DNA of 64,000 nt from Raja brachyura (taxonomy: Eukaryota). The first letter of the stretch is position 1, and the number at the start of each line of letters is the position of its first letter. Below, in pieces: positions 859-63,543 of this stretch. Below the pieces are notes generated by a model. It did no database searches, was not told the DNA's origin, and saw only the letters and a list, made by a program, of their open reading frames with translations. Both the position numbers and the translations under genes were made by a program. The DNA lies in contig OY740812.1 of assembly GCA_963514005.1 (NCBI GenBank), forward strand, positions 19,530,001 through 19,594,000, given 5' to 3'.

Positions 859-1082
859 AGACACAAAATGCTGGATTAACTCAGCAGGTCAGGCAGTATC
901 CCTGGAGAACATGGTTAGATGATATTTTGGGTAGAGACGCTTCTAACCTTATTGAAACAAGTGCTTTATTCATACATTGTAAATACATCAGTCTGAAGAA
1001 GGGTCTCGACCCGAAACGTCACCCATTCCTTCTCTCCAGATGCTGCCTGTCCCGCTGAGTTACTCCAGCATTTTGTGTCTAC
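859..1082. repeat. Inverted pair of PLE-derived pLTR-like repeats just downstream of the 1141 donor
   Basis: gacacaaaatgctgga..aactcagc at 860 is the reverse complement of gctgagttactccagcattttgtgtc ending at 1079. Confidence 0.85.
993..1020 (+). ncRNA. Minimal type-I hammerhead ribozyme core within a PLE-derived repeat (activity unproven)
   Basis: CTGAAGA-A-GGGT(CTCG)ACCC-GAAA-CG-TC gives the CUGANGA and GAAA boxes, a 4-bp stem II, palindromic ACGT stem III and a GUC triplet. Stem I is only about 2 bp. Confidence 0.55.
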
Positions 1083-1140
1083 CATTGTAGATTTAATATC
1101 TGAAATGCTGTCCCTTCAAAGTATAACGCCTTCTTCTCAC

Positions 1141-1355
1141 CTTAAGTTGTAGCTGTTGCTGGTACTGTTTCTGTTTCTCCAAAAACTGCTGGTGTTGTTG
1201 CTGCATCACCAGCTGCTGTAGGGCCTGTGGACTCTGGGGTAGAGGAGCCGACTGGGTACGACTGAGTGGCCGGTGTCGAGGCAACTTGTTCACCGTTCGG
1301 AGACTGGTGGAAACCCTCTCACCTGTTACCAGTGGCGACTGAGCATGCAGGGGAA
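1141..1355 (-). CDS. HDAC5: HDAC5 coding exon (V)[71 protein letters not shown]; gene continues beyond the left edge
   Basis: Contains the second 14-3-3 site (human S498 equivalent, RTQSAP). Acceptor tcttag, donor AAG|GTGAGA; 215 nt, phase 1 to 0. Confidence 0.96.
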
Positions 1356-1466
1356 CTAAGATAAATGACAGGAATATTGTCGTTATTCTTAAAGCAACAT
1401 TATTTTAAATTTGAACATTCTTCATGACCAATTTGTAATTTATCACAAAGCTTTACATGCTGACAG

Positions 1467-1632
1467 TTTAGTCTCAAAATACAGCGTGGAAACAGGCTCT
1501 TCGTCCCACACCAACCAGCGATCCCCATACACTCGCACTATCCTACACATGAGGGACAATTTTCAACAGGATCGAACCCGGGTCTCTGGCGTTGTAAGAC
1601 AGCAACTCTACCGCTGCGCCACCATGCTGCCC
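1467..1632 (-). mobile_element. tRNA-derived SINE with CR1-type tail (HE1/V-SINE-like), internally deleted
   Basis: The minus strand begins GGGCAGCATGGTGGCGCAGCGGTAGAG (A box) and has GGTTCGATCC (B box); same family as the 17.4, 51.1 and 61.1 kb copies. Confidence 0.8.
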
Positions 1633-4292
1633 TAATGTTTAGCTTTAGTACAGAATCAATACTTTACAATGGTCATAATGACAAAGCAGCACCCTAAAAT
1701 ATGATCAATTAATCTCTTCAATTTACATTTGTGTAAAATATTAATAATTGTACTTTCAGGTACAAGGTGCTCAACTTCAGAAAGTATATTATCATGAGGA
1801 AATTTGTTGAGCAGTTACAATATCACCTGCAGGAGCAATCCTCATTTCAATAAAGCCCAAATGCTGCCGGATCACTGAAATGTTATTTATATCATGTGTA
1901 TTTGTTTCTAATAGTCCCGCAGGTCTGTGATGTTAAAACATGGAAGATGAAATGGAATGTTTTATCAAGTAGATGCCACTTTCCAACAGCAAATTGTTTC
2001 TTTAATAATATATTGGAATTTATAACATTTGGTTATCATTTTTCCTTGCACCTTTTTATTTGTATAGAAATAATAGTACAGAAGCACAAATTTTAAACGC
2101 AAGCTTCAATGTTCCATTAACATGGCGTATGTAATTTTCATTAATGTAGGATAGGAGATGGCTAAAAGGTTGCTTTAGATTTTCCAAATCATTTCATAAT
2201 ACCTTGGTGGAATGCATGACTGAATTGGGCAGGAACTTGCTGGGAAATGCTGGTAGGCCCACAGCGATATTCCAGCAGATTCTTAGCTGCATCTAATCTC
2301 AAGACTCCAGAAGGAGCTCAGCAATTGAGCCTAAATTTACTGATCAGTGATGCTGAGGTATCTGCCCAATGAACCTACGCCAGGTTAAGAGTTGCACAAG
2401 AAAAGCAAGCCTGTAATTTAGAATGAAGTTCAGCTACAAGGAGAAAGATAATTTACAACGTTTTAATGATGTTTGATTTTAATTATTTATTATTTTCATT
2501 ATTTTAAAATGCTCTAAGTATTTTTGAACAATTTGATTTTCGATCAAATTATTAAACAGAACTGCTTAATTGTTCTTTAAAAGATTTTGAGTGCTTCTAA
2601 ATGACGGGGACGTTTTCAAAGCCTCGGAAAATTAAAAAAAGCAGCAGATGCTGGAAATCTGAAAAGAAAACATAAAATGTTGGATAATGTTAGAGTTGAC
2701 ATTTCAGATTGAAGACCCTTAACATTGTCCCTCTTTCTGCAGATGCTGTCTTACCTGCTGAGTGTTTAAAACCCCTACCACCCCAAAGTCCTTGTTAGTT
2801 TTGCAAAGGCCAAAACTTTTTTCATGACTTTACCAATTATTATTTTTTGGTTTATGCAAGAGCTTCATTTGGCTCAAGGTGGTGCTGCTGTGCAGGCCTT
2901 TATCATGGGGTATCCAATGCTTACTCACGAACAGATCAATAGTATACAACATTCCACAAAGAGTACAACATTTCTGCATATGTCAATAGTAAATGTTAAA
3001 ATAACAAGATTTCAACCAGAGACGAGGCAAGAGTTCAGATTACAATAACATTTGGTTGTGTTATCGTCATGAAAGCCCTCATAGATGAAAATAGATATGA
3101 AACAATTAAATGGCCTGAATCAACAATGTCTAAAAAAAAGTAAGATTTATTTATTTCAAATGCCTTCAGGTAGGATGACATATACTCAGTTTTCACTATA
3201 CCGGTAACAGATAATGCCTTACTAGTTCTAAGCAAGAGCATTTGAGCTGGTTCCAATCTTTCACTCTTCTTAGTCATATATTTTTTCTACTCCTTTGAAT
3301 GTCATATTTGAATTTACCTCCGCCACTAGCCCCGGCAAAGAGGTCCAAACCCTCACCACTCATTGCCTTAAAGGGGCTTCATCACAACTCTTGCTTCTTT
3401 GGCCAAATAGCTTCTTTTTATGCCCTCTGTTTCTTAATCATTCCATTAATAGGACCAGTTTCGCTCTATTAAGCTGTCAAGGCACTTCACCAGTTTAAAC
3501 ACTTTCATCAGATTCTCGCTCATCTTTCTCTGTTCTGAAGAGATTCAGTTTCTGCTGCCTCTCATCTCTGGCAATATTCTTCATGTCCTATTTCTCCACA
3601 TCTTTCCAAAATTGTGCTACCTAGAGCCGGACACATTACTCGATTGGTAGCCAAACTAGTGTATTATAATGGTTCATCAAGGCAGGAAAATGGGGTTAGG
3701 AGGGAGAGATAGATCAGCCATGATTGAATGGCAGAGTAGACGATGGGCCGAATGGCCTAATTCTGCTCTTATTACTTATGACCTTATGAGGTCCTAAAAA
3801 AACTGTTCATTATTACACTTCTTCAGGCTGATTGTGCTCTACAATCCGTCTGAAGAAGGGTCCTGACCTGAAACATCACCTGTTGCTTCCCTCCACAGAT
3901 GCTGCCTGACCCGCTGAGTTCCTCCAGCACTTTGTTTTGCTCAAGATTCTAGTATCTGCAGTTGCTTGTTTTTCCTGTGTTGATATTCCTGTTTCCACTT
4001 TGCCATTTTTTTTGAGCAATATAAATACATCCCCCTTTTAGAACAATGAAATAAAGGTGTTAATACAAGACTTGATAATAAATACTCATCAACTTTCCAT
4101 GTGAAATCAATTCTTCAACCCACAGGTTATCAGAGTATTCCCCCTTGCTTTCATTTTTGATTTTTGCACACTCTTAACAAAAAAGGCTTGCAGCTGTTAT
4201 ATTGATCAAGTATCTAAGCAGCATTATCAGCTTTGGATTCATTTCTTCATAGCTCTTATATTGCAATAACATTTTCAAATATAACTATTCAC

Positions 4293-4515
4293 CAGCTATT
4301 AACGCATTCTGTTGCCGAGCCTGTTCCAGTAGCAGCACATGTTGTAGAAGGGACGGGTGACTGTGAGTATTGGATTCTCCTTCAATTGCTGTTGCAGGCA
4401 AACAGGATGGTAGTGAAGTAGTACTCATGAACTTCCCTGTTAAGGCACCGCCCTGACGCAAAGACTGAATAGCTTGTCGCTCTGCTTCTTGTTGTGCTGA
4501 CATCTTTTGTGAGGG
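4293..4515 (-). CDS. HDAC5: HDAC5 coding exon PSQKMSAQQEAERQAIQSLRQGGALTGKFMSTTSLP...SLLQHVLLLEQARQQNALIA
   Basis: QQEAERQAxQSLRQGGxLTGKFMST is diagnostic of HDAC5 rather than HDAC4/7/9. Acceptor ttatag, donor G|GTGAAT; 223 nt, phase 0 to 1. Confidence 0.96.
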
Positions 4516-5545
4516 CTATAATTAGAAAGAACAATTGACATGAACAAAACAAAAACAAATGCTTATATCTGAATAGAATGCGTTTCCACTTATTCTACCA
4601 ACGAATTGAAAGAACTGTCCATTGCATTCAGCTTTGTGTACAGGAAGAAACAAAATGAATGAAGAACACAAAAGTACAGACCAGGGCAAAAACTTGCAAA
4701 TAAGAAACAAAATGGGAGCGCCATTAAAATACCAACGGGTCATTTCTTTTTTTATTATTTAATCGCAGCCACATTAACACTCAGTATACAGAGTCCACCA
4801 GCAGAAGAATGCCACAAACTGGGCTGAGCTTATGCAAAAACATCAGCAACAGAGGGAGCTATCACTGTACCCACTGTAGCTTAATTCCTGCCCTGCATAT
4901 GCAGATTTGCTCAATTAAGGCTCTTGAATATGAGCATAAGTCTTGCAAATACATTTTGAATACAAAGGGAAACACCTTTAAATGTCATATAGTTTATGGC
5001 AATGGAATACGAGAAAGTTGTTTTGGTTTTCAACTGTTCACGATTACATACATTAATGGGATGAGCCGACATACGAGTTTATGGCTTGTTGGACTAGCTC
5101 TAATTCTGCAGAGGTTAACAGCAGCCTTTCGAAACCATAACAACTGTAACATAAAACATTACGACCTTAAATTTTATTTCCAGCAGCCAGTGGTTCTAAG
5201 TGCATTATTTAATCATGTCAATGCTTTTTATTCTGTCTCTGAAATATATTTCAATGACTCTAATGGAATGGAATATGAAACAGAGTACAGTGCAACGTCC
5301 TGACTAAAAAGCACATTTAGGATACTCAATAGTATGAATCATTAGGCAGAATCAACAAATCCCAATTTTCTTAATTTTAAGTGTTTTTTTACTATTGATT
5401 AGTTCACTGACATTCATTCACAGCCTATTTTAGGTTCAGCAGTAGCCATTTTATTAAAAAAATAAGACACAGATCAAAATAAATTGGATTTTTATTTAAT
5501 TCGGTTCATTTAAAGAAATGCAATTCATAAAAAATGTCTACTTAC

Positions 5546-5680
5546 ATTAATCTGTGAGTTGGATGCTGTGACTGTAGCTGGGAGCCCCAGGGAAATGTTA
5601 GGCAGAGAAGGGGATGTGTAGAGGCTGAACTGACTCACTGACCCATCAATGTTTACTGCTTTATGATGTGGGTGCATATG
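5546..5680 (-). CDS. HDAC5: HDAC5 coding exon HMHPHHKAVNIDGSVSQFSLYTSPSLPNISLGLPATVTASNSQIN
   Basis: Manual translation; FSLYTSPSLPNISLGL is a conserved class IIa motif. Acceptor ccacag, donor AAT|GTAAGT; 135 nt, phase 0 to 0. Confidence 0.95.
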
Positions 5681-6099
5681 CTGTGGACAGAAACAAAATG
5701 CTGCTGTACATTCATTTTGATCATTAGATAACTTGACCCATTGCTTTTTATTTCTGTACCAGGGATCGATTCTCCCATTTAAAGCACTCAGCTACAACAT
5801 GATACAGTATATTCCACTGCACTCAGAAAATTGAACTTTTGGAACTCATGAAATTGTTTGGAAAGATAAGACCTTCGCAATGCATGTCCAACTCCTAATT
5901 TAATTATTCGTTTGGTTGGAGCATTGATAGCAACAGGTATTCATTAAATACACAAAGTGAACACCCTGTTAGAGAGCAAACTGCGTTTGTGAATTATCTT
6001 ACGATTTGCAGTCCAATAAGACTTGTCAGTTTGAATATTTAACAGAAATAATTGATTCAAGTCACGTTATAATTTTTCATATTGGTACAAGCACCACGT

Positions 6100-6342
6100 A
6101 AGTTTACACCCCAGCGGTATGAACATTGATCTCCAGTTTCAGATGGTCCTTGCTTTCTCCCTCAGCTTTCCCACAGCCTACTGTCTCCGCCTCTTCCTTT
6201 CTTTTTCCAGCCCCCCCCTCCCCCCACATCAGTCTGAAGAAGGGTCTCGAGCCGAAATGTCGCCTATTCCTTCGCTCCATAGATGCTGCCTCACCCACTG
6301 AGTTTCTCCAGCATTTATGTCTACCTTCGATTTTTCCAGAAG
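6100..6342 (+). mobile_element. Penelope-like element 3' fragment (end of GIY-YIG ORF, pyrimidine tract, pLTR with degenerate hammerhead)
   Basis: Starts with LHPSGMNID coding sequence, near-identical to 57278-57548, and ends in the ctgaagaagggtctcga..gaaa..ctccagca repeat. Confidence 0.8.
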
Positions 6343-6762
6343 TACCACATGTATTTTTTGAATATAACCCCTCTAAAACTTAAAACACGCAACATTCCTC
6401 GCATATATTATTATTTTCAAAGTAAATTAAATTTAGAACTTGGGTTTTATTATTGGAAACAAATTCATGATGGAATTCTTGGTGCTAAGAACAGTGGTAT
6501 GCAATCTCCAATATGGATAACACTGCAAATGATACTTTGGCATTTGCTTTCAAGAAATTACTGTATATATAATTATTTTCAAAGTAAACTATATCTACAA
6601 CTTGGATGTGATTATTGAAAGCAAATATTGTTGATTCAATGTCTACATTCTGAATAGCTAAAGATTAGATGTCTTAGTGGTCTATGATGTAATATGCAGC
6701 TCAATTTATCTGAAAGGGCATATGTTTAGTAACTGGTTGACTAATTACTCCCCATATTAATA

Positions 6763-7653
6763 CAGTAAACCCTCATTATAACGGATTGTGCGCTATAACC
6801 GGATAAGGTATTATCATTGTATGTAGTTTAAATAAAGAACTGCAGATGATGTTTAATACACAAAAGGACAGAGTGCATTCTGCTCAGCGGGTCAGGAAGA
6901 ATCTCTGAGGAACATGGATAGGTGATATCCGGACCTTTATTAAGACTGATTCAGTCTGTTGAGTTACTCCAGCACTTTATGTTGATTCACCTTAAAACTA
7001 GGCGCTGATGCTGCTTGTCTGCACCAGCAAGCACTTCTTCACTAGCTGACGCGGGGTTCAGTTGTTGTGGCTCGCGTTGTAGTCCCTGGCTGGCAATGCT
7101 TTCTTTAGGTCGCTGTCAACAACAGGACATGCTTGGTCACCGTGGGGCTCCCTCCCCTCTCACCAGCAACCTTCACTTTGTCCGCTCCCGCTCCACTCCT
7201 CCTTCTGCCCTGCAGTCGCCGACATCTTCCAAGATGGAGTATGTCGGGGCAACTCCAGGGGAGGGGAAGGCAGCAGTGAAGGAGGTGTCAGACAGAGGCA
7301 GAGTGGATTCGGCAACGGGAGAATGAGAAGGCACCAGTGGAGGAGTGGTGGTGTGGTCAAAGTGTAGGAAGATGCTGCAGCTAGTGAGAGGGGTGACCGA
7401 ATGCTTCCTGTCGGCGGTGGCGGCCTAAAGAAAGTGCTGTCGACCAAGGTATACAATGTGAGCTGCAACAACAGCCCTGTCATCGGGACTGTGTGGTGGG
7501 TGAAGATGGGTTCGCCGACGAGCCAGGGATGGCATTGGAAACAGTGGCTGCAATTTGAGGGGGAGGGGGTGCAAGTTGGCAGTTGCGTCGGACAGTCCGT
7601 CCGCTATAACCGAAATCCATTATAAAGGCGTCTGTTAAAACAAGGGTTTCCTA
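6763..7653. mobile_element. Non-autonomous Tc1/mariner-superfamily (Tigger/pogo-like) element with a PLE piece inside
   Basis: TA|CAGTAAACCCTCATTATAACGG at left and CTGTTAAAACAAGGGTTTCCTA|TA at right form an imperfect TIR with TA TSD; cgctataaccg recurs subterminally. Confidence 0.65.
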
Positions 7654-10159
7654 TACATCTAAAAAACAGTAGCTAACCTAAAAATAATTTCTATGTGTAG
7701 CATGGGCAGTGAAACCTTCCTGCTGCTTGGAGTTACTGCTGAATTCTGTACGATGAGCTGTACCGTTATAACTCAAAAGAAAACATGAATCCTAAATGTA
7801 GCTAACACCAAAAAAAGAAAATACTGGAAGCAATTGGCAAGTCACATAGCATCAGTAGGGAGAAAAACAGAGTCAAACACCCTTCTTCTGAACAAATATG
7901 TCCAACTCTACCAGAAATAAACGTAGATAGTATTTGGTTTTGTCGTTAGATTCATTGGTTATTTCTTTACAATGAGCATTAGTCAAACATCAATATTTCA
8001 ATCTCAAACTTTGTTCAAATTCTCTTATCTCTATGAAGCTTCGATTATTTGCCGGAATGATGCAGGGATTGGAGTACTGCACAAATGTTTTAATGTTTCA
8101 TGTTTATCTCCAAAATGTGACAAATTAAAAGGGAAGCCAAAATATTGATGTGCTATATGAGCACTGTGAAGTAATATCTGATAAATCTGAAGTGCTGGAG
8201 TAACTCAGCATCTGTGGAAGGAATGGATAGTTGATATTTTGGGTCAGGGCCCTTCTTCAGACCTGAAACATCACCTCTCCATTCTCTCCGCAGTTTCTGC
8301 CTGAGCACTGTGCCCCTCCAGCATTGTGTGTTTTTCTTCAGTTTCCAGCAAATACAGTTCCTTGCGTCTTCAATAAATCTAACTGCTGAGACAAATTAAT
8401 CATTATGCACTACTCTGTCAGGTATCCCAGAATAGTAGGATACATTCATGTTGCAAATGCTCATACTTTTTATGTCACAGATAAGTTGCTTATAATGTTT
8501 GCCTGCAACGATGTGACAGGCAGTGAATTGTTTAGGGTTTTTTCCTACCACTATTTACATTTGGCTTCCCTGTGCTCCTGCCAAACAGTGTAGGGGCGCT
8601 CAATGTCAACAATGATTCTCAATCACTGTTTAGAGTTAAGTCCAATACTGACCCAATTTGAAGAGATTATCAACATTGACAATATTTTCAAACTGAAAAA
8701 TACTGAAAAAGCTTCGCAAAACAATACACCAATGTATAACTTTTCACTTAGTACTTTGGTAGAAGAGCTTGTGGCCCAATGAGGCAACAAAGGTGGATGA
8801 TTGGAGGAATTTCCATATATTAATCTACTGCAGAACTCCAGAACCACGATTATGCTAGTCACAAATCACAGTTCAGCTTTTTAATCTCATCAGTATTCTT
8901 TATCACAGAGCAATGAAGCTAACCTCCACAAAATGTTGTCACAACATTATTTTTTCCTAAATCACTACTCAATTCCATGCAGGAGAAAAAAAAATCTTTA
9001 GAAACACTAAATGACAAGCCTCGACACAAAATCGTTCTTCTTGATACGAGGTATGAGTCATTCTTAGTCACAGTGCTTGACATTTCAGACAACTTCCGTC
9101 ATTTTATAAATGTTTGCTCTCTGCAGCAGCTTCAAGGAGAAATTATTTGTAAATGCAGCCCCAAAATAATTAAGCTGAACAGTGTGAGCTCAAAGATAAA
9201 GGTGGGAAGATGGAGGTAGACAAAATCTGTTTATCTGTATATTCTTACACGTTACTGGATACTTCAGCTGTTAAAATATTAATAAAATACCAATATACCA
9301 GCTGACACAATCTCTACCAAAAATATATAATTCATTTAAATCAAAAATATCTGAAATCCACATATTTGAAGAGTAACACTAAAAACAAATTTTACTGAAA
9401 GTTGCACAATATTAAAAAAAAGAGACAGAAGATTACTCAGCTAATTTTGCTATATTTAATATTCTCTCTAAAAATTCCAAATTTGTGTGATGTGGTGTGC
9501 ACCTCCATGTAAATCAAACTGCAGAGGAGGAACAATACATCACACGAATATTAAATATCTACCTTTGTATAGTGGTTCGCACACTCCCAAATTTAGCCCA
9601 ACTGGTAAAGGACAACTATGAAATAATATTAGTTCAATGCCAAGCTAGATTATATTGGACACTATCCCAAAAGAGTAAAGATCACTGTAAAAACTGAAAA
9701 TCTACATTGATTCAATTGATATGGAGTGAAGTACACTGGTAAACTAGAATGGAGAGTTTTAGTTTTAACTGCTCACATTCTGAATATTTGGAAGGGAGAG
9801 GAATTAAATTACCTACAATAAACTACAAAAGAGCATAATCTTTTGAATAATTCAGTTTACAAAAATTATTACAGATAAATCCCATTACTGTAAAAATCCA
9901 GAGTATTTGCTATTTATAAAATCTCATGGCACTCATTAATCTTAATATGACTACAGCTTTTGAATACTACCACAAAATCAACAAATTACTTGCCATTGGA
10001 GTGTATTTAATGGTAAAACTTAAATTTATGTAATACTTACAAGCCCAAAACTCATATTTACTGCCTGTAGATTTTAACGTAACAGCTTATAAAAAGGCTA
10101 GTTATTATATGCTTGGAAATAACTGGTTTAAAGATTTAATGTTAGGTACAAGCTATTAC

Positions 10160-10272
10160 CTCAGCATGAATATTGGGTACAGAACCGGTTGTTCCGTTCT
10201 CTGCAGGAATATTGTTTGAATTGTTCGGAGAGCTAGGGCCAGACCCAGGAGCACTGTTACAGACTGAGGAAA
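10160..10272 (-). CDS. HDAC5: HDAC5 coding exon (V)SSVCNSAPGSGPSSPNNSNNIPAENGTTGSVPNIHAE
   Basis: Manual translation; SSVCNSAPGSGPSSPN matches HDAC5. Acceptor tttcag, donor GAG|GTAATA; 113 nt, phase 1 to 0. Confidence 0.95.
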
Positions 10273-11689
10273 CTGAAACAATCAAAACAAAGAAACTAGC
10301 ATCAAGGAAACAGCAGTTTCATCAGACTCTGGCTAAATGCTCAAGAACAAAAAGCATAGTTTAATCCCCATTACTCAACACATGCAATATTTAGACATTA
10401 TTTCAAGGGCCAATTTGCTGTTTTTCAATGGAAGGTGTGATACCTTGATTGATTCACCATTGAGCCAGGATTATCCATTTGTGCACTTTCCAACCATTCA
10501 TGGGTGGAAAATTCCACATTAGCCAGCAACGGCAGAAAATTCCATATACAGAATAATAGCATAACTGTTTTTGCAAGAATATATGAAGCAATAAATGTTT
10601 TTCTTCGTTTTATGTAAACTAAGCATAGCATTAAAAAATGGTAACACGGCAGGTAGAACCTCTTTAAATATTCTCTTATAGGCGATAATTTAAAGCATTT
10701 TCTGAGCATGATATCTAGAGCCTGCCTGAAAACTTGTGTGCGAAGAAACATTGCAGTGTTTCTCCCTTTACAGGACATTTGATGGAAAATAGGGAAAAAT
10801 CTTCCATCGCCCAGTTAAATCCTTGAGATAGAACTTTGTCATTGCATGGCTATTCCTATCATGTTGATTATGGGAAGCAAGTCTGCATTGGTTACAATGA
10901 GACTGTTCCAACATCCACAGGATGATTTCACAGGGAACCATAACTGACATTAGCGGAACATTCCAGCAATTACTGAGCCTTGTTCAAGGCTCACATCATT
11001 ACAAATAAAATTCATGTTTTATCAATAAAAGTAAATTATGAAACTTTTCTCTATAAAATAGGGCAAGATATTAGAACAGTATCTATGATGAGATATTAAA
11101 AACTAAAAATAAATGCTGTCTTTGTTAATTAGTCACTATTTAGTACTTAGCATACACCTTTATACAAAAAAAAATGATTGAACTCGACATCAACTGCACC
11201 TCAAACATGTTGATCTTAAAGCTGAACAGAGATTGGACTTCACAGAACCCACCCAGGATTTGTGGAAGGTTTTAGAAGCTTTATAAAATTGAAATGATGT
11301 GGAGAATACGTCACAGTTTTTCTAGCATTTTCTATCAGCACATCCCTTCTATAGTTGCTTGGCATGGTTTTTATATACAAAGATTTAAAAAAGAAGGCTG
11401 GTTCAGTAAAAATGAAATCATTTCTGCACTGTTGTATTTACCTTTTTTTTATAAAACAAAATAAGGAAAGCTGCTAATATGGAGCATGATTTGACTTGAT
11501 GGCTGTCTTTATTTCTTATAGCCGCATACATATATTCATGAGAAATTCATCTCTCAGTTTTTGAAAGGTGGAAGACCAATGGAATATGAAAGTCAGGACT
11601 CATCAGGCAAGGAAGACAAGTGAACTCAGTGAAGTTAATGAGGGTGTCTTGGGGATAGTGGCATTACAGTAAAGATGGTGTTGGCGTCG

Positions 11690-12205
11690 TCCCCTTCCTC
11701 ATTCTCTATCTTGCCCATCGTCTCTCACAACTCGATCCCTCTCTGCCCCTACCTCTCTCTCTCTCTCTCGCTCACTCTCTTATCCTCTTTCTTTTCCTGG
11801 GTACCACCCCTCTATCTCACCCTCTCCAGCCCTCCTTCTCTCGTTCTCCCATGCTGTAACTCTCTCTAACGTCGGTTTCCATACCTTCCACTCTCTCTCT
11901 CGGCACCTCCCTCCAAACTCCCCTTCCCGCACCTGTATCGTTCTTTATGACTTCCCATCTTTATGCCATCTTCACTCTCTATGCTCTCTCTCTTTCTCTG
12001 TCTACAATCCCAACCGTCCTTCCTCTCGATCTCTCACTCTGTCCTCTTTGCGTATGTTATGCCCCCTTCTCTCCAATACCTTCCCCTTTCTCGTGCCTGG
12101 TTCCTCCCTCTCCCGTCTCTCTCTTCTCCTTCCCTCCCTCTCTCTGTTAACCCTTTGTCGACCACCTTTCTCCACTCCTCACTCTCTTTGTCCCTTATTC
12201 TCTGC
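11690..12205. repeat. Polypyrimidine (CT-rich) low-complexity tract
   Basis: About 500 bp dominated by C/T with (CT)n runs. Confidence 0.85.
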
Positions 12206-12239
12206 ATGAAGGTAGATAGATAACTACCTATCTGATAGG

Positions 12240-13665
12240 ATCTGATCAGGTCTATCCAAGAACAAATTGGAAAGCTGGAAGAAATTGTGGCAGCCCTGGC
12301 TGATATGGTGAGTGCCGGAAGACTGGAGGGTGGATAATGTTATGTCTCAATTTAAGAAAGGCAGTAAAGAAAAACATGGGAATGATAGACCAGTCAGTCT
12401 GACACCTGTGACTTGTAGGCTACTGGAAGGGATTCTTGAATAAGATAGATGTATTTGGAAAGATAGGGGTTGATTAGAAATAGTCAGCATGATTTTGTGT
12501 GTGGGAGGTTATTTGTCATAAATTTGATTAGAGGTAGATGTGGGCAGGTTGATAGATGTTTTTTATATAGAGTTCAACAAGACCTTTGAAAAGGTTATGC
12601 ATTGAAGGTTACTCTGAAAGGTTTGATCGCATGGGATCCAGGAAGAGATAACTAATTGGCTTGATGACTGGCAGCAGAGGATAATGTGGAAGGATGTTTT
12701 ATGAATTGGCGTTCCATGACTAGTGATGTGCCTCAGGGATTGGTGATGGGCCCACTGTTGTTTGTCATCTGCATCACTGATTTGGAAGAGGATGTACAAG
12801 GCATGGTTAGTACATTTGTAGATGACACTAAAATAGGCGGTAGTGAAGGTATAGGTAGACAGTGAAGGTTATCAAGAAATGCAGCAGGATCATGATCAGC
12901 TGGGTAAATGGGTTGAGAATGACAAATGAGTTTAATTCAGATTAACGCGAGATGTTGCATTTTGGGATGTAAAATCAGGGCAGGACTTTCATAGTAAATG
13001 GTGGGAGCCTGAGGAGTGTTCTAGAACAGAATGATCTAGGAATACAAGTACATAGTTCCTGAAAGTTGTGTCACAGGTGAACAGGGCAGTGAAGGAAGCT
13101 GTTGGCATGCTGTAAAGGCACTGAGTATAGAATGTAGGAGCTGATGTTGCAGTTAAACAAGACTTTGGTGAGGCTGCACATGGAGTATTGTGTTCGGTTT
13201 TGGCCACCCAGAGAGAGGAAAGATGCCATCAAGCTGGAAAAAAGTGGAACAAAAGATTTATGAGGATGTAACCAGGACTCAAGGGACTGAATTGGGTGTA
13301 TTGGCTGGGATTTTATTTTTTGGAATGTTGGAGACTGAGGAGTTATCTTTAAGAGGTATGTAAAATTATATCCTTTATTTCACAGTTGTGGAATCAAGAA
13401 CTAGAGGGCACAGTTTTAAGTGAGATGGAAAAGATTTAGTAGGAACCCGAGGGGCAGCTTTTTCACAAAGTGGGTGCTAGATACTTGGAATGAGCTGCAA
13501 AATGTAGGGCGATACTATAACAACATTTAACAGATACTTGGATAGGTACGAATAGGAAAGGTTTATATGATGTGGATCAAATGCGGGCAAATGAGACTAG
13601 CAAGATAGGCATTCTGGTTGGCACGAACAAATTGGCTGAAAGACCTCGTTTCCATGCTATATGAG
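12240..13665 (+). mobile_element. CR1 LINE 3' portion (decayed reverse transcriptase and 3' UTR)
   Basis: Degenerate RT motifs readable: RPVSLT, SQHxF, VPQGxVxGPLLF, FVDDTK; C-terminal RTRGH. Confidence 0.85.
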
Positions 13666-15002
13666 CCTGAAAGGACATGCTAATACACCTCTGGTAGATG
13701 ATTAGTGGCTTGAAGGCTCCATTCCAAATCACACATTCCTGCTGCCAGAAATGAAACACTCATTCCTGACCCACCAATGCACTGGAAACATCTGAATGAC
13801 AGTGCTTCATGTTTCTAGTGGGACCAGCGTTTAAGATGGAAAAAAAGGTGGCATCAGCTGGAAAAGCTCAATTGTCTACAGCTCCAAAGATAATTACCAT
13901 ATTTTGAAATAGCACAATATCAATCTGTTAATGGCCACAGTGAATTGTCCTGACTGAATCTGGAACACCAGGAAGCCAGATGCAGTGTTGTGGCATATGT
14001 TGCAAAGCCACTTAGTGTTAATACCTATCACAAAATCGGCACAGGAAATAACAAATGGCAGCTATGGCTTCAATGCTGCCTCAGTTATTTTAGATTCTGA
14101 AATTCTAATTCCTGGGGATTGTAAAGAAAGTAAATCTGATGGACAACTCTTAAAACTAGCCATTCTGCACAGTGCCCAAATGTGTGGTCAGGTCTGGGCT
14201 GGGCTGTTCCCCTGGTGGCCAGTCTTAGCAAATGTTGCTCATAGATTCACGTATTTTTGGAATTTTCAGTGGATGCTAAAGCTCTATTCTCTTATCATGC
14301 CACTTCTATTACAGTGTGCATCTCTTTAAATTTCACCAGGTTCCTATATAGATTTCCATTTGTGTGGTCCTAACACTTGTTTGAATCTGCACCTATTACT
14401 GAGAGTAATAATGGTAAAAGAGCAACATTGTGTACAATTTGGAACTAATTTAGATTGCCTGATTGCACTGAAGTTGTGTTTTATGAACAAATCAAGAATG
14501 GAAGGGAATCTACGACATTAAGATTAAAACACAGATGCTCCACAATACACCAAGTACCATTTATCAAGCAGCATTTTTATAACCTCAGTACCCCGGAATT
14601 AGAACATTATCTAATCTAAATTTCAATTCTATTTATTTGAATGTCCCAATGAAATGGATACATGTAATTTTTTTTACCTTTTGCAGACATAGAAAGAATG
14701 TGGATTTTCCATCACGTTAAAAATCTTTTATTCAATATCACTTAAAGAAATGATTCTCCATACTTTGCACAGAATTCCAGGAATTGGGTATGTGTGGTTC
14801 CCAAGCTCCACCAATTCTACACATTGTGATTAGCTGAGTAATATAGACTAGGAATGTCCCGTCTTTGGTTTCATCATCTTTGGACTAGGGAGAAATAAAT
14901 CATTGAGATTATCACTCCTGCTCACAAGCTGGGACCTCTCTTAGAAGTGTGTATCTACAGACTTCTAGTTAGCACAACATAGAGCCTTTATTTAATGTGT
15001 CT

Positions 15003-46805: not shown

Positions 46806-46831
46806 TAGATAATAAGGATAGAGATAAAGTT

Positions 46832-56245: not shown

Positions 56246-56754
56246 AGAAGCATTAAGGAAATATGATTCACACTGGAGGTTACTTTTTTCCAGGTTATAT
56301 TTTCAGACACCACACAAACAATTTTATCTCAGTAAAATCCTGACAATACCAATTAAATAAATAGTTAGATAAATAGTACTCAGCCTTTATAAATGGGAAT
56401 AGATGACAGAAGCATACTTAACCCAAAAACTAAGTTATCATGAAAACTTTTTCTACATTGAAAAACAATTTCATACAAGATAAACCTTTATTGTTGTTGG
56501 AAACAGTTAAAATGAACCAAATGTCAATGCCAAATTGCAGCTTCAAAAAACTCACAAAAATTGATTCTAAATCAATGACGACGTGAGATGAGGTGACAAA
56601 GGTGGGGCTTGAGAGGAGAGAGTGGAGTTTGAAGGGTATATGGAGTGAATTTATGTGGCTGGCATCTGACAGCATAGATGCCAAAGAATGAAACACAGAA
56701 GAACAAATGCGATTTGAATTCAGTTCAGTCAGTGATCACATGCAAAGTGGGTGG

Positions 56755-57548
56755 TCAAAAATGCTGGAGAAACTCAGCGGGTGAGGCAGCATCTATGGAG
56801 AGAAGGAATAGGCGACGTTTCGGGTCGAGACCCTTCTTCAGCCTGATGTGGGGTGGGGGGGGTCGGGAAAAAGAAATGAAGAGGCGGAGACAGTAGGCTT
56901 GTGGGAGAGCTGGGAAGGAGAATAGACAATAGACAATAGGTGCAGCAGAAGGCCATTCGGCCCTTCGAGCCAGCACCGCCATTCAATGTGATCATAGCTG
57001 ATCATCCCCAATCAGTATTCCGTTCCTGCCTTCTCCCCATATTCTCTGACTCCGCTATCTGTAAGAGCCCTATCTAGCTCTCTCTTGAAAGTATCCAGAA
57101 AACCGGCCTCCACTGCCCTCTGAGGCAGAGAAGTCAATATTCATACCACAGGGGTGTAAACTGCCCAAGTGAAATATGAGGTGCTGTTCCTCCAATTTGC
57201 ACTGGGCCTCACTCTGGCAATGGAGGAGGCCCAGGACAGAAAGGACCTTCTGAAAGGACCTCATATTTCGCTTGGGCAGTTTACACCCCAGCAGTATGAA
57301 CATTGACTTCTCCAATTTCAGATAGTCTTTGCTTTCTCCCTCCTTCCCCTCCCCAGCTCTCCCACAAACCTACTGTCTCTGCCTCTTCCTTTCTTGCCCC
57401 ACCCCACCCCGACATTAGTCTGAAGAAGGGTCTCGATCCAAAACGTCGCCTATTCCTTCTCTCCATAGATGCTGCCTCACTGGCTGAGTTTCTCCAGCAT
57501 TTTTGTCTACCTTCGGTTTTTCCAGCATCTGCAGTTCTTTCTTAAACA
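56755..57548. mobile_element. Penelope-like element 3' ends in inverted arrangement (minus copy 56755-57245 interrupted by a CR1 tail at about 56920-57128; plus copy 57255-57548)
   Basis: The minus strand encodes VLGLLHCQSEAQCKLEEQHLIFHLGSLHPCGMNIDF, the C-terminus of a PLE GIY-YIG endonuclease; the plus copy repeats LIFRLGSLHPS.MNIDFSNF; possible degenerate TSD acatg...gtggg. Confidence 0.85.
56814..56841 (-). ncRNA. Minimal hammerhead core, sense to the HDAC5 pre-mRNA
   Basis: Minus strand reads AGG-CTGAAGA-A-GGGTCTCGACCC-GAAA-CGTC-GCCT. Confidence 0.5.
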
Positions 57549-60500
57549 TGTCAGGTGGGAGTATCTGGAGTCATAGCACGTTGTGTTAGAGACTGAAAAC
57601 CATGTCTTTGCCCTTTACAATGTTCAACTAGAGTGAAACATTGATAGTGGTCCAGGACTAAATATTGGACTGAAGTTAAACAAGTTGACAAAAAAGGGGT
57701 CAACAATTATAACAAAGGTCTGTGACTCATCTGTCTTTGAATGGAATCTCACACATGCATCATATGCATGAGTCTGGAAGAGAAAGGGCTAGGTGAGTAC
57801 CTGTGTGGGCAACTGCGGAAATATATTGGTGTCGTGAAAAAATATATATTACAGAGGAAAGCAAGTTAGACAATTTTATTCAAATTCAAAGCTTCTGTGA
57901 AACAGTTCCTACTTTATATTGACATTGAACTTACCTTATAATGATAAAGTCAATGTGGGCTAGTGGAAAAAAAGAGTGGGAGGGAAACTCCCTGGAGATG
58001 CATTAGACCCATTGGGTTTAACACCACATGCAGCGCAACTTTAGAGTGACGTTAAATTGCATTTACAAGGAGCCCTAAGGAATTTATTGGATCTCTTACC
58101 ACATTTTAAACCTACCTGGAGTTAATTAAAATGTTTACAAAGTATGAATGCTGCAAACTACATGCTTTCATTGTTTCTTTTAACTATTGGCCTTTTAAAC
58201 TCATGTGAATAGAGAGAGGGTAGGCACAAAACGTTGGAGCAACTCAGCGGGACAAGCAGCTTCTCTAGAGAGAAGGAATGGGTGACGTTTCGGGTCGAGA
58301 CCCTTCTTCACACTGATAGTGTATCATGAGAGCTTCCTTTTAGCAAAATGTAACAGCTAAATCTTGCCATGACCACCATCCACAGCTAAAGCACAACGTG
58401 TCATGAAACACCTGTGTCCTTTTGTAATTGGTTACAGACAAGAGGGAGAGACTTTGAGTGAGTGAATGTTTTTTCCCCCAAACTGGAGCGAGGTATGCAT
58501 TGGATTCCTTTAAGCAGTCAGTAAAAGAGACACGATACAAAATTTAGTATGGTAAATAGGGAGTACGAAAGTAGCAGAAGCAGGAATATATAACTGAATT
58601 GGTTAAACATAAGAGGAATTAATAATTTCAGTTGTGTGGTCAGACTGAAAAAACTGGAATTGATATTATAAGAGAATACCACATCAGATATATTCCAATT
58701 TATGAAAAAAAATCAAGGAGCAGGCATTTATTGCTCAAGGCCACAGATTTATAATAATTGATAATAATTGGAGGGCTATCAAGTTTTGGAACACACCATA
58801 TGAAAGATTGGTGGATGCAGATTTCAGAGAAACGTTCAAAAGCCATTTATTTGAAAATGACTAATTTGGGGGAATTGCTGGGGTGTAGGACTAATTGGAC
58901 AGCCCTTTCCGAGAGCTAGCAGAGTAATGATTAATCAAATAGCTTCCTTCTTTATCGCAAGAGCTCATGGTTATTTACTTAATACCTTTAATTTGAAAAC
59001 ACTGAATTATTGGGATTTCACCTAAATCTAAAATTACTGCACTAAAAGAGATAAATTGAGGAGATTTAATTTTAGGAGACTATTTACATCTTGTATAGAG
59101 CTTATCCCCATGATCATCTGGTTTTACCCTATCAGATGCATCATACTCTCCCTACAGCTAACAAGCTTATTTTGCTTCCTTCCTAGTTCTGATGAAGAGT
59201 CTTCGACATGAGATATTGACTGTTTCTTTTCCTACAGATATGGCTTGAGTTTTTCCAGCATATTCTGAATTAGTTTATCGGGGATTACAGAAACTTGAGA
59301 GGACTGCATACAGAAATCTATTGATAGGATACCAATCATTGAATAGACAGGAGTTAGATGTCAAAAGGGTGAACATGGTTCACGAGGTGGGTTAGTGTCA
59401 TTGATGACAAGAAATATAAAACAATAAAGAAACTCTGTTTGTTCATATTTTGACTTGAATAATCTGATTTAAGACAAGTTCATTCCTAAAAAAAAATTTG
59501 GATTTGAATTCAGTCGATAGTTTCCCTGCATGGACAGATAGAGCATGCAATAATTGTTTTTTTTCAATCAATAATTACCCACACATCCAACAGAACAAAT
59601 AACAATATAATTAACACCTAGAATGTGAACCTAACTTCCACAATTTGAAAATAAATAAACAAGTGAAATAAGTTTTTATTAAAGATTTGGTTTGAAACGG
59701 TCAATTCCAAGGAGATCAGCTGAAGAAATTATGTTCTAGGAGTTACAGGTATAAAGAGTGCACCAAGCCACAATTAGTACATAGCTAAAAGTGAGGCACC
59801 CTGGGTTTGTGATGCCATCTTTACCAAAGTTAAATTTAGCTTCCTAAGAACCAGGCTAAATAAATCTGCGGTATCAATTTCTCTGAAAAATTAATTGCTC
59901 AGTATTTAAAGATAACTTTATCCAAAATAACGACGCTAATTTAAATTGTTCAAAAATACTTCAAGATAGACTGCAATGCAGAATTAGAACACTAATGTAT
60001 CATCCAAATTTGCAATCAATCAGACTGATCAGCTGAATTTTTTTTTAATTACATCCATAAAGTTCTTAATTTGAAGTTCAATTCAATTAAAAAACCCACT
60101 GATCGAATTACTGCAATTGGAAATAGTAAACGTTGCACCAATGTCATCAGAGAATAGAATGTAAAGTTGTGATTTAGTATGTAACATCAGAATAGATTTA
60201 GAGATGGGTGCTTCACCCCAATCTTAATTACTTTAGATTTGAATGATTGGTATAATTAACAGTACTCAAAAAGAAGCTCAACCTCAAAGAAAATATTAAT
60301 TTAGACTGTAAAAGGAATAATAGTTAATAGATAAATTAATACTACCAACAATACTCATTGTTTGACATTTTAGCATAATTATGATGTTTTAATCTGCAAT
60401 GAAACTAGGACCAATAATACAGCATAGCTAAGACATCTTAAACATTTACAATTTTCTGAATACAGTAGCATGGCTGTCAACTTTATTTTAATCATATCTA

Positions 60501-61104
60501 CTTAAACAAACAATGCACAAGTACCACAGATACAATTAGGTATTTACATTGATTGACAATGAGCAGAAGTTTACTTGCATTTATTCTGTAATGAGAGGGT
60601 GAAAGGGAATTTCCCCAATAATTTGTCCATAACACCCAATACACTTGCCATTGTATTTTGAGATCAGGACATGATGCTGTCAATCCTCTGAAACACTTAA
60701 CTATAATACTTTGTCCTTTCCTCTGATACAAAACCAATACCAATTCCTTTAAGGAAAGTGTTCATCTCACACGGTCAAATTGTGGTGCAGAGCAGACATA
60801 CTCCAGCTTTGACCTCTAATTATTGCACTTTGTTTTTGGAATCGTTACTGTAAGCCCATACTAAAACTAAACTAAAAATAAAATATCAATACAGCATTGG
60901 TTATTGTTTGCTAATACAATAATTGTAGCCTAAATTAATCATGAAAAGTTGAAGGGGATCAGTAGACCACAGGTGTAGATATTGGATTTGCTTAGAGGCA
61001 GTATGTTGTCAATAGTTATCGTAATTTATCCATATGACCTTCTAAATGAAAACATTTGATTGCTGCCTTAGTATGGAAATATTTTTCAATTCCAATATAA
61101 CCAA

Positions 61105-61410
61105 GAGGTTGATTGATTGAATTGATTGAACGGTACAGTATGGAAACTTGCCCTTCAACCCACCATACTGACAGCCCATTCACACCCGTTCTGTGTTATC
61201 CCACTTTTGCATTCTTCTTTACACACAAGGGGGAATTTACAGTGGGCAATTAATCCACAAACACACATGTCTTTGAGATACAGGAAAAAACTGAATGCCT
61301 GGAGGAAACGTGCCAGGGAGAACGTGCAAACTCCACACACACAGCATCCGAGGGCAGGACCAAACCCGGGTCTCTGGGGCTGTGAGGCATCAGCTCTACC
61401 AACTGCACAA
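61105..61410 (-). mobile_element. tRNA-derived SINE (HE1/V-SINE-like)
   Basis: (GATT)n tail, gggagaacgtgcaaactccacac core, acccgggtctctgg..ctgtgaggca head. Confidence 0.75.
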
Positions 61411-61669
61411 CCTTCCTGTCTGCAACTCTGCTGTGCTAGAGTGTTGCCTGTTAGTTTTTACTCTCATTTAAAAAATGATTAAACAGCCCATCTTGTTTGC
61501 ATTATGCCAACTGCAATTACAGCCATAATTGCTGGAAGTATATTGCAAAAGACATAATTTACAAAATTGCACGGACCCGGGAATTTAACGCATTCACCTG
61601 CGTAAACTATCTGTTTTGTTTCATAAGCAAATCCCTGAAGTACAGGGGATACAGGAGTATAATTAAGTA

Positions 61670-63118
61670 GGAAATCATGAGGGCAAAAAAATGGTATGGA
61701 ACAGCATTGGCAAAAAAGATCAAGGAAAATACAAAGAAAATTTTGAAGTACATTAAGGAAAAAAAGAGTAGCGAGCAAAGTAATAAGTCTATGTGGAGTC
61801 ACAGGAGATGGGCGAGATCCACAATGAATATTTCTACTCTGATGTTATGGTGGGGAAAGATATGAAGACTAAAGAACTCGGGAAAGTTAATGGGAACATC
61901 TTGGCGATAATCCACATTATTGTAGAAATGCTGCACATCTTAACATTCATAAAGAGAGATAAATCTCCAGGACCTGATGAAGTTCACCCAAGAACACACA
62001 GGGGAGCTAGATAAGAAATTGCAGGAGCTAAGCATCATCATTAGCCTTGAGTGAGATGCTGGAAGACTAGAGGGTGGATAAGAAATCAGTCATCCCTAAT
62101 TTCTTTTGTTAAGAATAACTGCAAAGAAAAACATGGGAAGAAAACTAGTAAACCATCATGACATTACAATACATGGAATGGCAGATAGTGAGGTTGCAGG
62201 TTCTTGATCAGCTGGTTATGTACTCCGAGGCTTGGCAACTGGAATTCAATTCAGATAAGTGCGAGGTGTTGCATTTGGGGGAGTCAAACTAGGATATGAT
62301 TTTTATAGTGAATGGTAGAGGAGTGTTGTAGAACATGTCAATTACAAACTTCCTTGAAGATTGTGTCACAGGTGGAGAGGGAGCTGAAGGATGTTTTGTG
62401 GCCTAGATCCCTTCAGTCAGGGGATTGAATATAGAAGTTTGGATGTTAAATTGCAGTTGTACAAGACGTTGCTGAGGTTGCATATGGGAGCACTGTATTC
62501 AGTTTTGGTCATCCTGCGAAAGAAGATGTCATTAATCTGGAATGAATGGAGAAAAGATTTACCAGGTTATTGTCAGGATTCGAGAGATGGGGTTATAGAG
62601 AGCGGTCGGGCAAGTTAGGACCTCAGACTGGGGTGGGAGATTGCAACCTTCACGTGGTCCACCCTGTTTCGACGAATGCAATCAACCCGGCGTGCACAAT
62701 CAAGTAAGATCAAATAGAACAAGTTGTCCTACAACTTTAGGCTGTGCACGCCATACGCAAGAAGAAGACCTCTGACTTGGGTGTGATCATATAGAGGGTT
62801 GTAAAATCATGAGGGGAATAGATAGGGTGAATTCACAATTATTATTTGCACAGGGTAGGGGAATAAAGAACTAGAGTTCACAGTGAATGAGGGGCGTTTT
62901 AGCAGAAACTTGAGGGGCAACTATTTCTACACAGAAGGTAGTATATGGACCGAGCTGCCAAAGGAAGTTGTTGAGGATAGTTCAATAACATTTAAAAAGC
63001 CATTGGACAGCTTCATGAACAGGAAAGGTTTGGAGTGCGTCCATGGGTCAAATGGGATTAGCTTAATGGGGCATCTTGTTTAGTTTGCTCAAAGGGCATT
63101 TTCTGTCCTGTATGACAC
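61670..63118 (+). mobile_element. Decayed, internally deleted CR1 LINE
   Basis: LAKKIKEN.K...KYI, KSPGPD.VHPR, FNSDKCEVLHLG and LQLYKTL.R motifs. Confidence 0.8.
62636..62766 (+). mobile_element. Short retroposed insert (5'-truncated LINE end or SINE) with an (AAG)n tail and about 17-bp TSD
   Basis: GACCTCAGACTGGGGTG (62619-62635) versus GACCTCTGACTTGGGTG (62767-62783); interrupts a CR1. Confidence 0.7.
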
Positions 63119-63543
63119 TGGAGATAGACATAAAATGCTGGAGTAACTAAGCGGAACAGGCAACATATGTGGAGAGAAGGAATGGATGAAGTTTCAGGTC
63201 GAGACCCTTCTTCAGACTGAGAATCAAGGGAGAGGCATAATGGCTCTATGACACTATGGCTGCTTTATTTGCCGAAACAAATGGAATTGAATATTCTACA
63301 ATCACCTATCATAATTCCCTTCATATTGTTTAATGGAAGCAAGGTCATTGGTGAAGACCAGCATGCCAGAGAGATTCTCCACCACGATGGCTGGGCTGAG
63401 ATGCCGTTCTGTGGAACTAGTGTGTCAATATCCTGGGTTATGGGACGATTGACCACCAACAAGAAAACGATCTTCCTGTGTGCAAGGTGTGACTTCAACC
63501 AAACCAGTGTTTTCCCCTTGTTGCCAAATACTATTATAAGGTC

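Follow-up and report, generated by a model that had tools for sequence, protein, structure and literature searches.

The window analyzed here is a stretch of 64,000 nt from contig OY740812.1 of Raja brachyura, and tblastn searches indicate that the HDAC5 gene spans it entirely, on the minus strand. Eight HDAC5 coding exons fall inside 1228..24299 (-), with the following approximate tblastn spans:

24051-24299, minus strand, HDAC5 coding exon
22419-22562, minus strand, HDAC5 coding exon
20513-20635, minus strand, HDAC5 coding exon
15493-15627, minus strand, HDAC5 coding exon
10160-10279, minus strand, HDAC5 coding exon
5531-5683, minus strand, HDAC5 coding exon
4294-4515, minus strand, HDAC5 coding exon
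1228-1368, minus strand, HDAC5 coding exon

Since a further upstream coding exon sits about 24 kb past the window end, the region from 24.3 to 64 kb is HDAC5 intron, and for the same reason we rejected a CpG island at 48.0-48.8 kb as the HDAC5 start. A first-pass annotation had proposed that copies of a hammerhead-bearing repeat are transcribed within HDAC5 pre-mRNA; the host gene is indeed HDAC5, and the minus-strand copies are in the sense orientation. A profile search detected 35 pieces of the repeat in the window, where we describe the following features:

990..1020, plus strand, AGT leader and intact core, cut site after 1020, antisense to HDAC5
989..1084, plus strand, short pseudo-LTR copy of the ACCC subfamily
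3847..3970, plus strand, older pseudo-LTR copy with tail and mutated core, antisense
6101..6340, plus strand, 5'-truncated Penelope-like element (PLE) copy with core at 6234-6261 and pseudo-LTR, antisense
6101-6146, plus strand, about 15 frameshifted C-terminal codons of the preceding copy, followed by a 3' UTR of about 88 nt
21057..21179, plus strand, very old copy whose stem I has 4 bp (AGTC/GACT) and whose catalytic boxes are dead
30474..30514, minus strand, short copy with both catalytic boxes mutated, sense
30808..30936, plus strand, pseudo-LTR copy with tail and mutated boxes
31899..31913, plus strand, 15-bp target-site duplication, left copy
31912..32003, minus strand, left arm of a youngest-subfamily insertion arranged head to head, with core 31976-32003, sense; its end coincides with the first copying start site
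32005..32131, plus strand, right arm with 35-nt tail, core 32005-32032 without closing stem I pair; its complementarity with the left arm is 100% along 92 nt
32132..32146, plus strand, 15-bp target-site duplication, right copy
38531..38594, plus strand, older partial copy
56750..56922, minus strand, copy with 3' UTR and exact core 56814-56841 without closing stem I pair, sense; its complementarity with the copy at 57.4 kb, 536 nt away, is 89%
57127..57243, minus strand, inverted fragment of 39 codons from the C-terminal end of the ORF, with 74% identity to the full-length protein
57260..57545, plus strand, last ~21 ORF codons, stop at 57323-57325, 94-nt UTR, core 57420-57447 with mutated GAAA box, pseudo-LTR and tail
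58219..58315, minus strand, short copy with C3 mutated, sense
59184..59270, plus strand, very old copy whose stem I has 4 bp (AGTT/GACT) and whose GAAA box is mutated
63114..63219, minus strand, short copy with intact boxes, broken palindrome and G.U at the stem II base, sense

The exact 28-nt core reported at 993-1020 (+), 31976-32003 (-), 32005-32032 (+) and 56814-56841 (-) is present at all four positions, and the mutated copies near 3.85, 6.23, 30.5, 30.8, 38.5, 57.4, 58.3, 59.2 and 63.2 kb were all recovered. The four cores had been called intact, which holds for their sequence but not for the closing stem I pair, missing at 32005 and 56814. With at most three mismatches, the window contains 9 core matches against 0.00 expected from 100 shuffles, and the 2.7-Gb genome contains 50,608 exact copies, with 0 for a reversed-pattern control. 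The core combines the CUGAAGA and GAAA boxes with a GUC (UH) cut site, as in minimal hammerheads (min-HHR). An unpaired extra A stands between positions 9 and 10.1, followed by stem II (GGGU/ACCC) with its G10.1-C11.1 pair, and the palindromic 15.2-16.2 (ACGU) has no loop 3. This layout agrees with the proposed minimal type-I hammerhead of a Penelope-like element and, judged by its sequence, the core is a known kind of minimal hammerhead motif, expected for such elements. Rfam hammerhead models gave no match in the window or in the full-length element L094, and they also missed the canonical hammerhead in locus L106. A genome pattern search with CTGATGA returned chiefly point variants of the same families. 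In public contigs the family occurs in several organisms with loose ends at the same 5' edge, these contigs being without starts, ends or strand.

A close parallel can be drawn with the min-HHRs that PLEs carry (Cervera & de la Pena 2014, PMC4209133), described there as type I, with an extra base after A9, the G10.1-C11.1 pair, palindromic 15.2-16.2, a location in the pseudo-LTR (pLTR), and an occurrence mostly as single dispersed copies and as pairs on opposite strands. On the other hand, stem I has 2 bp here against the usual 4-5 bp (2 bp in D. virilis), stem II has 4 bp against 6-8 bp in the examples of that paper, and the exact copies counted here compare with about 4,000 motifs reported in coelacanth and about 9,000 in Xenopus. 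No term for a cartilaginous fish turned up in the searchable supplement of the same paper.

The full-length unit is about 3.97 kb long and contains a single ORF of 1192 aa, with a reverse transcriptase (RT) followed by a C-terminal GIY-YIG. The core lies about 233 nt past the ORF stop codon and is present in both flanking pLTRs of full elements (loci L092, L094 and L095); tandem elements exist at genome loci besides the full-length ones. Pfam scores of the ORF were E 2e-4 for RVT_1 and E 2e-3 for GIY-YIG, both under the curated cut-offs, and it shares 32% identity over 747 columns with a family passing the GIY-YIG cut-off. A CX2-5CxxC linker and a CCHH motif were read directly in the translation. 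An initial Pfam GIY-YIG search of the genome had returned chiefly another PLE family. The link previously drawn with a GIY-YIG ORF at 6.1 and 57.3 kb is true, but only 15-40 terminal codons are left in the window (about 21 at 57.25-57.33 kb, 94 nt ahead of the core), and the GIY-YIG motif itself occurs nowhere within it.

Neptune-type EN+ PLEs (Craig et al. 2021, PMC8557442) share with this element the single ORF, the RT, the CX2-5CxxC linker and the GIY-YIG with CCHH, as well as 5' truncation, partial tandems, inverted 5' copies and a 30-40-bp tail. The linker is common to Neptune and Nematis according to the same source. Unlike the elements described there, the skate protein carries a long proline-rich N-terminal extension, and 172 end pieces in 490 kb give a density of about 350 per Mb, or about 0.95 million genome-wide when extrapolated from these 490 kb. 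From the ORF layout, the linker and CCHH motifs and the copy structure, we provisionally assign the element to the Neptune type, and the repeat represents, on this sequence evidence, the pseudo-LTR terminus of young Penelope-like elements of this type.

The ends of the copies proved informative about the RNA from which they were made. Their 3' ends form peaks at +91..95 and +126..130 from C3, two sites 35 nt apart that match the PLE tail described in PMC11167929. The 5' ends, with ragged junctions, cluster at the hammerhead 5' edge, and subfamilies with unrelated UTRs converge at CAGT. Of 122 copies of the youngest family whose core is intact, 74 retain less than 22 nt of the upstream UTR, 12 break off in the ~130 nt that follow and 36 read through; 344 of 621 unanchored copies, read-through copies included, reach -5..0. 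By contrast, only 3 of these 621 start exactly at the cut site (+28), without any peak, and apparent 3' ends at C17 do not exceed those at neighbouring positions (U16.1 160, C17 151, N1.1 204, C1.2 162). Inspected loci that do not continue in the element numbered 2/15 at U16.1, 4/30 at C17, 6/30 at N1.1 and 1/15 at C1.2, and at most 9 of 100 stutter junctions counted by eye could end at C17. Since neither copy starts nor copy ends peak at the cut site, the copies are made from RNA that the ribozyme has not cut, events rarer than about 1% being below the reach of this footprint search.

The base preceding AGT was G in 48, A in 38 and T in 14 of the first 100 of 6,473 copies scored by eye, G thus exceeding the 28.5% expected (p 3e-5); before AGT at stutter junctions, the extra base was G:A:T 33:11:1, again by eye. 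Among 15 of 67 joints, none of the GT-AG type had its end at the CAG in front of the motif; a longer stem I formed by splicing may still occur. Together, the 5' cluster and the extra G suggest a capped transcript beginning at the motif's 5' edge, although reverse transcriptases add purines also without a cap. We consider it probable that the repeat is the hammerhead pseudo-LTR end of young autonomous Neptune-type PLEs, copied from an uncut, likely capped template that starts three bases before the catalytic box. By analogy with the Anolis biochemistry, the element protein would start reverse transcription inside the RNA at two sites and run 95-130 nt to the RNA 5' end, where a C would be added opposite the cap. 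The cDNA would then integrate, fold back (as in head-to-head pairs such as that at 31.9-32.1 kb) or switch template. The Poseidon element PAc of Anolis (Frangieh et al. 2024, PMC11167929) likewise has two internal start sites that define the tail and an uncut RNA template, with no reads at the cut site in the PAc data. PAc belongs to another clade and its ORF starts inside the hammerhead, whereas here the next start codon of the full-length element is 163 nt downstream of C3; an extra-G 5' run-off cluster is not known to have been reported for PAc.

The same element and ribozyme could also be used differently, with an RNA that starts further upstream or reads through tandems, the ribozyme releasing unit-length or circular RNA as in the model of Cervera and de la Pena, and the 5' cluster marking a pause, fold-back or nicking site. 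UTR read-through in the 36 young copies, the existence of tandem arrays and fold-back inversions in 64 of 277 edge copies are in line with this possibility, as is the commonest stutter junction, which is CAGT (44/100 by eye) and not GAGT. However, unit-length cut RNA should yield copies beginning or ending at GUC, where no peak is seen, and the extra G falls exactly before AGT, so that we regard an upstream start as possible but rather unlikely.

A start of the uncut, capped template at the motif's 5' edge would also leave stem I only 2 bp. That stem I is this short in young subfamilies had been noted before and is upheld; the 4-5-bp form was not found in them, and in the youngest family the 2 bp of stem I include a closing U.G pair. 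A stem I of 4 bp (AGTY/GACT), attributed to older copies, is real at 21.06 and 59.19 kb, but the catalytic boxes of both copies are dead. GACT-type copies number 3 among 796 scanned, including these two, and GACT is absent (0/100) from the first 100 of 684 well-preserved copies with an extra upstream base. We do not retain the suggestion of a recent loss of activity, as the 4-bp form rests on two decayed copies and 2-bp stems I also occur in families of other animals and in D. virilis (PMC4209133).

That the motif is catalytically dead in this lineage and retained as a promoter or protein-binding sequence is a reading that we find improbable. Besides the short stem I and the lack of a footprint of cut RNA, it draws on folding predictions: the hammerhead fold lies 3.4-9.8 kcal/mol above the minimum with a stem II probability of at most 0.01, and the active dimer is predicted at -6.7 against -15.2 kcal/mol for two monomers. 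The pLTR folds no better than shuffles (z -1.3). Ribozyme mutants also left insertion in vitro unaffected (PMC11167929), but in the same work the Anolis motif cuts only with protein. A comparison with other animals speaks against a dead motif: there, stem I of the same core carries compensatory changes and stays paired. At least 2 bp are paired in 14 of 16 clusters, against a shuffle mean of 4.8 and a value reached by 0 of 20,000 shuffles, these clusters deriving from 83 metagenome matches and not all being independent, as some share one family. Five different closing dinucleotide pairs occur among them, this genome's included, and 18 of 80 other-animal core loci matched a PLE endonuclease end.

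Conservation within the genome is less telling. Across inserted copies, the conservation of downstream blocks is close to that of the core. Against a consensus biased by the youngest family, core CpG positions differ in 25-34% of older copies and 39 of 64 downstream positions are at or below the core's maximum divergence; the test was repeated on account of this bias. Because inserted copies decay neutrally, the proposed refutation by copy-wise conservation is a weak test, and the informative comparison is across families, not across copies. At the subfamily level, 0 of 10 non-CpG core positions changed against 9 of 62 downstream (Fisher p 0.24, weak alone), and position 1.1, under the same consensus bias, is A or G only, each pairing with U2.1; both observations argue against a dead motif.

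The short copies had further been taken for a separate non-autonomous family, which one might picture as SINE-like or of the retrozyme kind. Many copies of about 100 nt do have their own target-site duplication, and their density is high. Non-LTR retrozymes (bioRxiv 10.64898/2026.07.22.740005) are also hammerhead-bearing PLE-derived repeats, reported there in one chondrichthyan; they are defined as tandem hammerhead arrays, whereas the window contains no such array and its copies are single or inverted ends; genome-wide, short stutter junctions number 804 beside the 50,608 exact cores. The short copies match full-length element ends over their whole length, belong to the same subfamilies and have ragged 5' junctions. 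They are truncated insertions of autonomous families of which full-length copies exist, which makes a separate family very improbable.

Finally, the intragenic window and its several sense copies might suggest that the repeat cuts or regulates HDAC5 pre-mRNA, which we hold to be extremely improbable: among six minus-strand copies scored, only that at 31976 has boxes, palindrome and stem I all intact, a box, the palindrome or the closing pair being gone from the other five, and copies decay neutrally. Cutting of the HDAC5 transcript by resident copies is unlikely because this sole intact sense copy is locked as one arm of a perfect 92-bp hairpin (predicted energy about -214 kcal/mol). The relevance to HDAC5 proposed initially is thus not borne out, and our data give no pointer to ribozyme control of this gene.

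Within the reading that we favor, an uncut template starting at the motif, inserted copies are neutral passengers. The ribozyme would be slow, needing a dimer and the element protein, and its target would be the RNA of the element itself, at a step other than copy-making. A more tentative proposal, about which we have some doubt, is that the hammerhead forms the first 31 bases of a capped RNA and works as a self-decapping switch, its stem I being limited to the 3-base leader; from this position, cutting would remove the cap. If this is true, the approximately one million short copies would be strong-stop-like run-off cDNAs recording the start site genome-wide. A start at the motif is not general, since D. 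virilis starts 46 nt before an intron ending at helix I (PMC2377424, PMC4209133).

Outside the window, we also observed a second family, with two ORFs, an endonuclease and a full hammerhead, embedded in telomeric repeats at 13 chromosome ends. This telomere-embedded sister family may matter more than the repeat of the window.

The copies described here provide a large natural record of Penelope copying, which comprises internal starts at two sites, a template left uncut and an abrupt stop at the ribozyme's 5' edge. A living vertebrate genome thereby supports what one lizard element showed in vitro, and the record of copy ends makes the role of PLE hammerheads experimentally testable.

The intact hammerhead-like core that the first-pass annotation had placed at four sites of the window was recovered exactly at all four (993-1020 and 32005-32032 on the plus strand, 31976-32003 and 56814-56841 on the minus strand). 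With up to three mismatches allowed, the window contains 9 core matches, against none in 100 shuffles, and a profile built from the window copies detected 35 repeat pieces. The same profile found 172 pieces in a randomly chosen 490 kb of the genome, about 350 per Mb, which extrapolates to roughly 0.95 million end pieces in total. The exact core occurs in 50,608 genome copies (2.7 Gb) and its reversed control in none. Two window copies form a head-to-head pair at 31.9-32.1 kb, flanked by a 15-bp target-site duplication. Seven end pieces of Penelope-like elements (PLEs) are crowded together at 30124-31273 in both orientations; the composite at 30.26-30.5 kb is found nearly unchanged at two loci outside the window (L023 and L146) and may travel within another repeat.

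The identification of the core as a hammerhead was upheld by its structure, since it possesses both boxes, the extra base after A9 and the basal G-C pair of stem II. The available text of PMC4209133 describes these features for the minimal hammerheads of PLEs, together with a palindrome; the palindromic ACGU that replaces stem III there is likewise present here. The expected conservation of the core across copies was borne out only in part. In 144 older copies, which were selected by core match, ten non-CpG core positions differ by 7.6% on average against a downstream median of 11% (p 0.002), but subfamily-level variants gave no clear contrast (0/10 of these positions and 9/62 downstream, p 0.24). 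CpG positions have decayed in 25-34% of older copies, core included. Conservation within this genome is a weak test of hammerhead identity; the comparison across families is stronger. When metagenome records were scanned for the core under no constraint on stem I, at least 80 loci emerged. Among the matches listed, the flanks are unrelated to the present family, 18 of 80 loci match a PLE endonuclease C-terminus, and stem I pairs over at least 2 bp in 14 of 16 clusters, against 4.8 in shuffles, with differing closing pairs, although some clusters represent one family and 14/16 overstates their independence. Stems I of 2 bp also occur among these listed loci.

The 4-bp stem I attributed to older copies is visible at 21.06 kb (AGTC/GACT) and 59.19 kb (AGTT/GACT), where each side carries an extra base that pairs. 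It is rare, however: GACT was present in only 3 of 796 scanned copies, and a set of 684 well-preserved copies having an extra upstream base showed none in its first 100. That stem I was longer in an older family is plausible but thinly supported. Copies with an extra upstream base in the genome search include a subfamily whose stem II has a UUCG loop, whose fourth pair is U.G and whose cut site often reads GUU.

With tertiary contacts ignored, the predicted minimum is 3.4 to 9.8 kcal/mol more stable than the hammerhead fold, and the active dimer scores -6.7 kcal/mol where two monomers reach -15.2. Such unfavourable energies fit the cleavage reported in the available parts of the literature, which is low and dimer-dependent (PMC4209133; review PMC6765202) or protein-assisted (PMC11167929).

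As to the parent element, 7 of the first 30 core loci encode the end of an RT + GIY-YIG protein ahead of the core, and an eighth has a weaker piece. Queried with part of this RT, the genome gave 150 scored matches, 97-100% identical, and frames of 1203-1204 codons enclose some of them. Whole elements at fetched loci have a unit of 3,965-3,971 bp and an ORF of 1192 aa from the first ATG; the core stands about 233 nt past the stop codon and 163 nt ahead of the next ATG, and is present in both flanking repeats as well as in tandem arrays. Pfam recognized RVT_1 (E 2e-4) as well as GIY-YIG (E 2e-3), each scoring under its curated cut-off. A CX2-5CxxC linker and a CCHH motif are readable in the translation; both are listed for Neptune and Nematis in the available text of PMC8557442, a likeness by motifs. 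The reported GIY-YIG ORF does adjoin the repeat at 57.3 and 6.1 kb, but only its ends are left in the window:

57.26-57.32 kb, last about 21 ORF codons
57127-57243, inverted 39-codon ORF piece, 74% identical
6.10-6.15 kb, about 15 frameshifted terminal ORF codons

The ends of copies bear on how the repeat is transcribed and copied. The 3' ends of 142 youngest-family copies peak at +91..95 and +126..130, counted from C3, the first core base. They mark the optional tail that PMC11167929, in its available text, ties to two internal reverse transcription start sites. Upstream, the UTR is shorter than 22 nt in 74 of 122 youngest-family copies with intact core, a further 12 end within the ~130 nt beyond, and read-through is seen in the remaining 36; among 621 copies not selected by core, 344 extend to -5..0, read-through counted. 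Within a sensitivity limit of about 1% of events, no footprint of the cut site was detected: 3/621 copies start exactly there and 11/621 within one base, neighbouring positions being alike, and apparent 3' ends genome-wide show no peak at C17 (151, against 160 at U16.1, 204 at N1.1 and 162 at C1.2), most inspected loci being small indels. Because neither copy starts nor 3' ends peak at the cut site, the template of copies is uncut RNA, as in the Anolis work (PMC11167929, available text).

The subfamilies of this genome have unrelated upstream UTRs, whose only point of convergence is CAGT. The non-templated base (not C) before AGT, counted by eye in the first 100 of 6,473 cases, was most often G (48), then A (38) and T (14), against 28.5% G expected (p 3e-5). 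Stutter junctions (100 of 804, by eye) comprised GAGT 33, AAGT 11, TAGT 1, CAGT 44 and other 11. In L1, an extra G is known from copying of the cap, and CAGT resembles an initiator. We infer that capped transcripts would start at the A of AGT, which would also explain the ceiling of three pairs in stem I. In many subfamilies, CCCTGAC or CCCTAAC is common to unrelated UTRs 3-8 nt ahead of CAGT (e.g. L094:2230-2252, a fetched locus). It could be likened to a branch point, although it lies too near the AG, to a telomeric word or to a promoter element.

The minimal motif and its location in PLEs are already published for many animals. In the literature searched, we found no account of this family or of a transcript start at the motif; one chondrichthyan is covered by a 2026 retrozyme preprint, as far as its available text goes (bioRxiv 10.64898/2026.07.22.740005).

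The host gene marks the genome as that of a ray-like cartilaginous fish: one HDAC5 exon shares 96% identity with the Hypanus protein and 95% with that of Narcine. Another coding exon lies upstream, about 24 kb outside the window, so that all window copies are intragenic:

1.2-24.3 kb, minus strand, eight HDAC5 exons
993, 6234, 32005 and 57420, copies antisense to HDAC5
30482, 58284 and near 8.26 kb, minus strand, copies with a lost box
56814, minus strand, copy without closing pair
63188, minus strand, copy with palindrome lost
31976, minus strand, whole copy inside a perfect 92-bp hairpin

The proposed sense hammerheads of the HDAC5 pre-mRNA thus exist as minus-strand copies, but five of the six scored for intact features are defective and the sixth is in the hairpin; cutting of the transcript by them is unlikely. 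Within the 64-kb intron, a CpG island (48000-48800) adjoining a purine-rich tract is a possible alternative promoter; among the HDAC5 protein matches are shorter forms that begin near the 24.3-kb exon. A minisatellite of about 55 copies of a 17-bp unit occupies 44439-45300. Inverted repeats of 140 nt, 1.3 kb apart (41680-43265), flank a transposase-like frame (42176-42616), presumably a decayed Tc1-type DNA transposon; we take 43521-43985 and 46809-47225, by resemblance, to be C-terminal fragments of a CR1-like LINE ORF.

Outside the window, a second PLE family encodes an RT + GIY-YIG protein of 760 aa, 32% identical to that of the first, and, in an additional upstream ORF1, about 600 aa weakly matching GDSL-esterase (E 0.002). 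Its canonical, monomer-type hammerhead, about 185 nt ahead of ORF1, is full (stems of 8, 4 and 5 bp), with the active fold as predicted minimum. The family was found at L106:1506-9995 and also at L100, L105, L107 and L361-L363. The genome search placed it at 13 chromosome ends, always pointing inward and no more than 100 kb from the end (12 of these on contigs of known length or at a contig start, and one right end). Fetched ends carry 5'-truncated, (CCCTAA)n-capped copies of over 99% identity, and 24 of 47 3' ends continue into telomeric repeats. Internal tandem arrays also occur (L101, L102; contigs C1 at 0.49-0.52 Mb and 151.6 Mb, C13, C15, C41), some containing short telomeric runs; these arrays are possibly old chromosome ends or fusions. 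Telomeric PLEs are described as endonuclease-less in the available text of two reviews (PMC8557442, PMC6431247), whereas this family, lying in telomeric repeats, keeps its GIY-YIG. We found no vertebrate precedent for this in the literature, mostly at title and abstract level. The copy ends of the window's repeat give a testable hint at mechanism, and the telomeric family is likely of more interest than that repeat.
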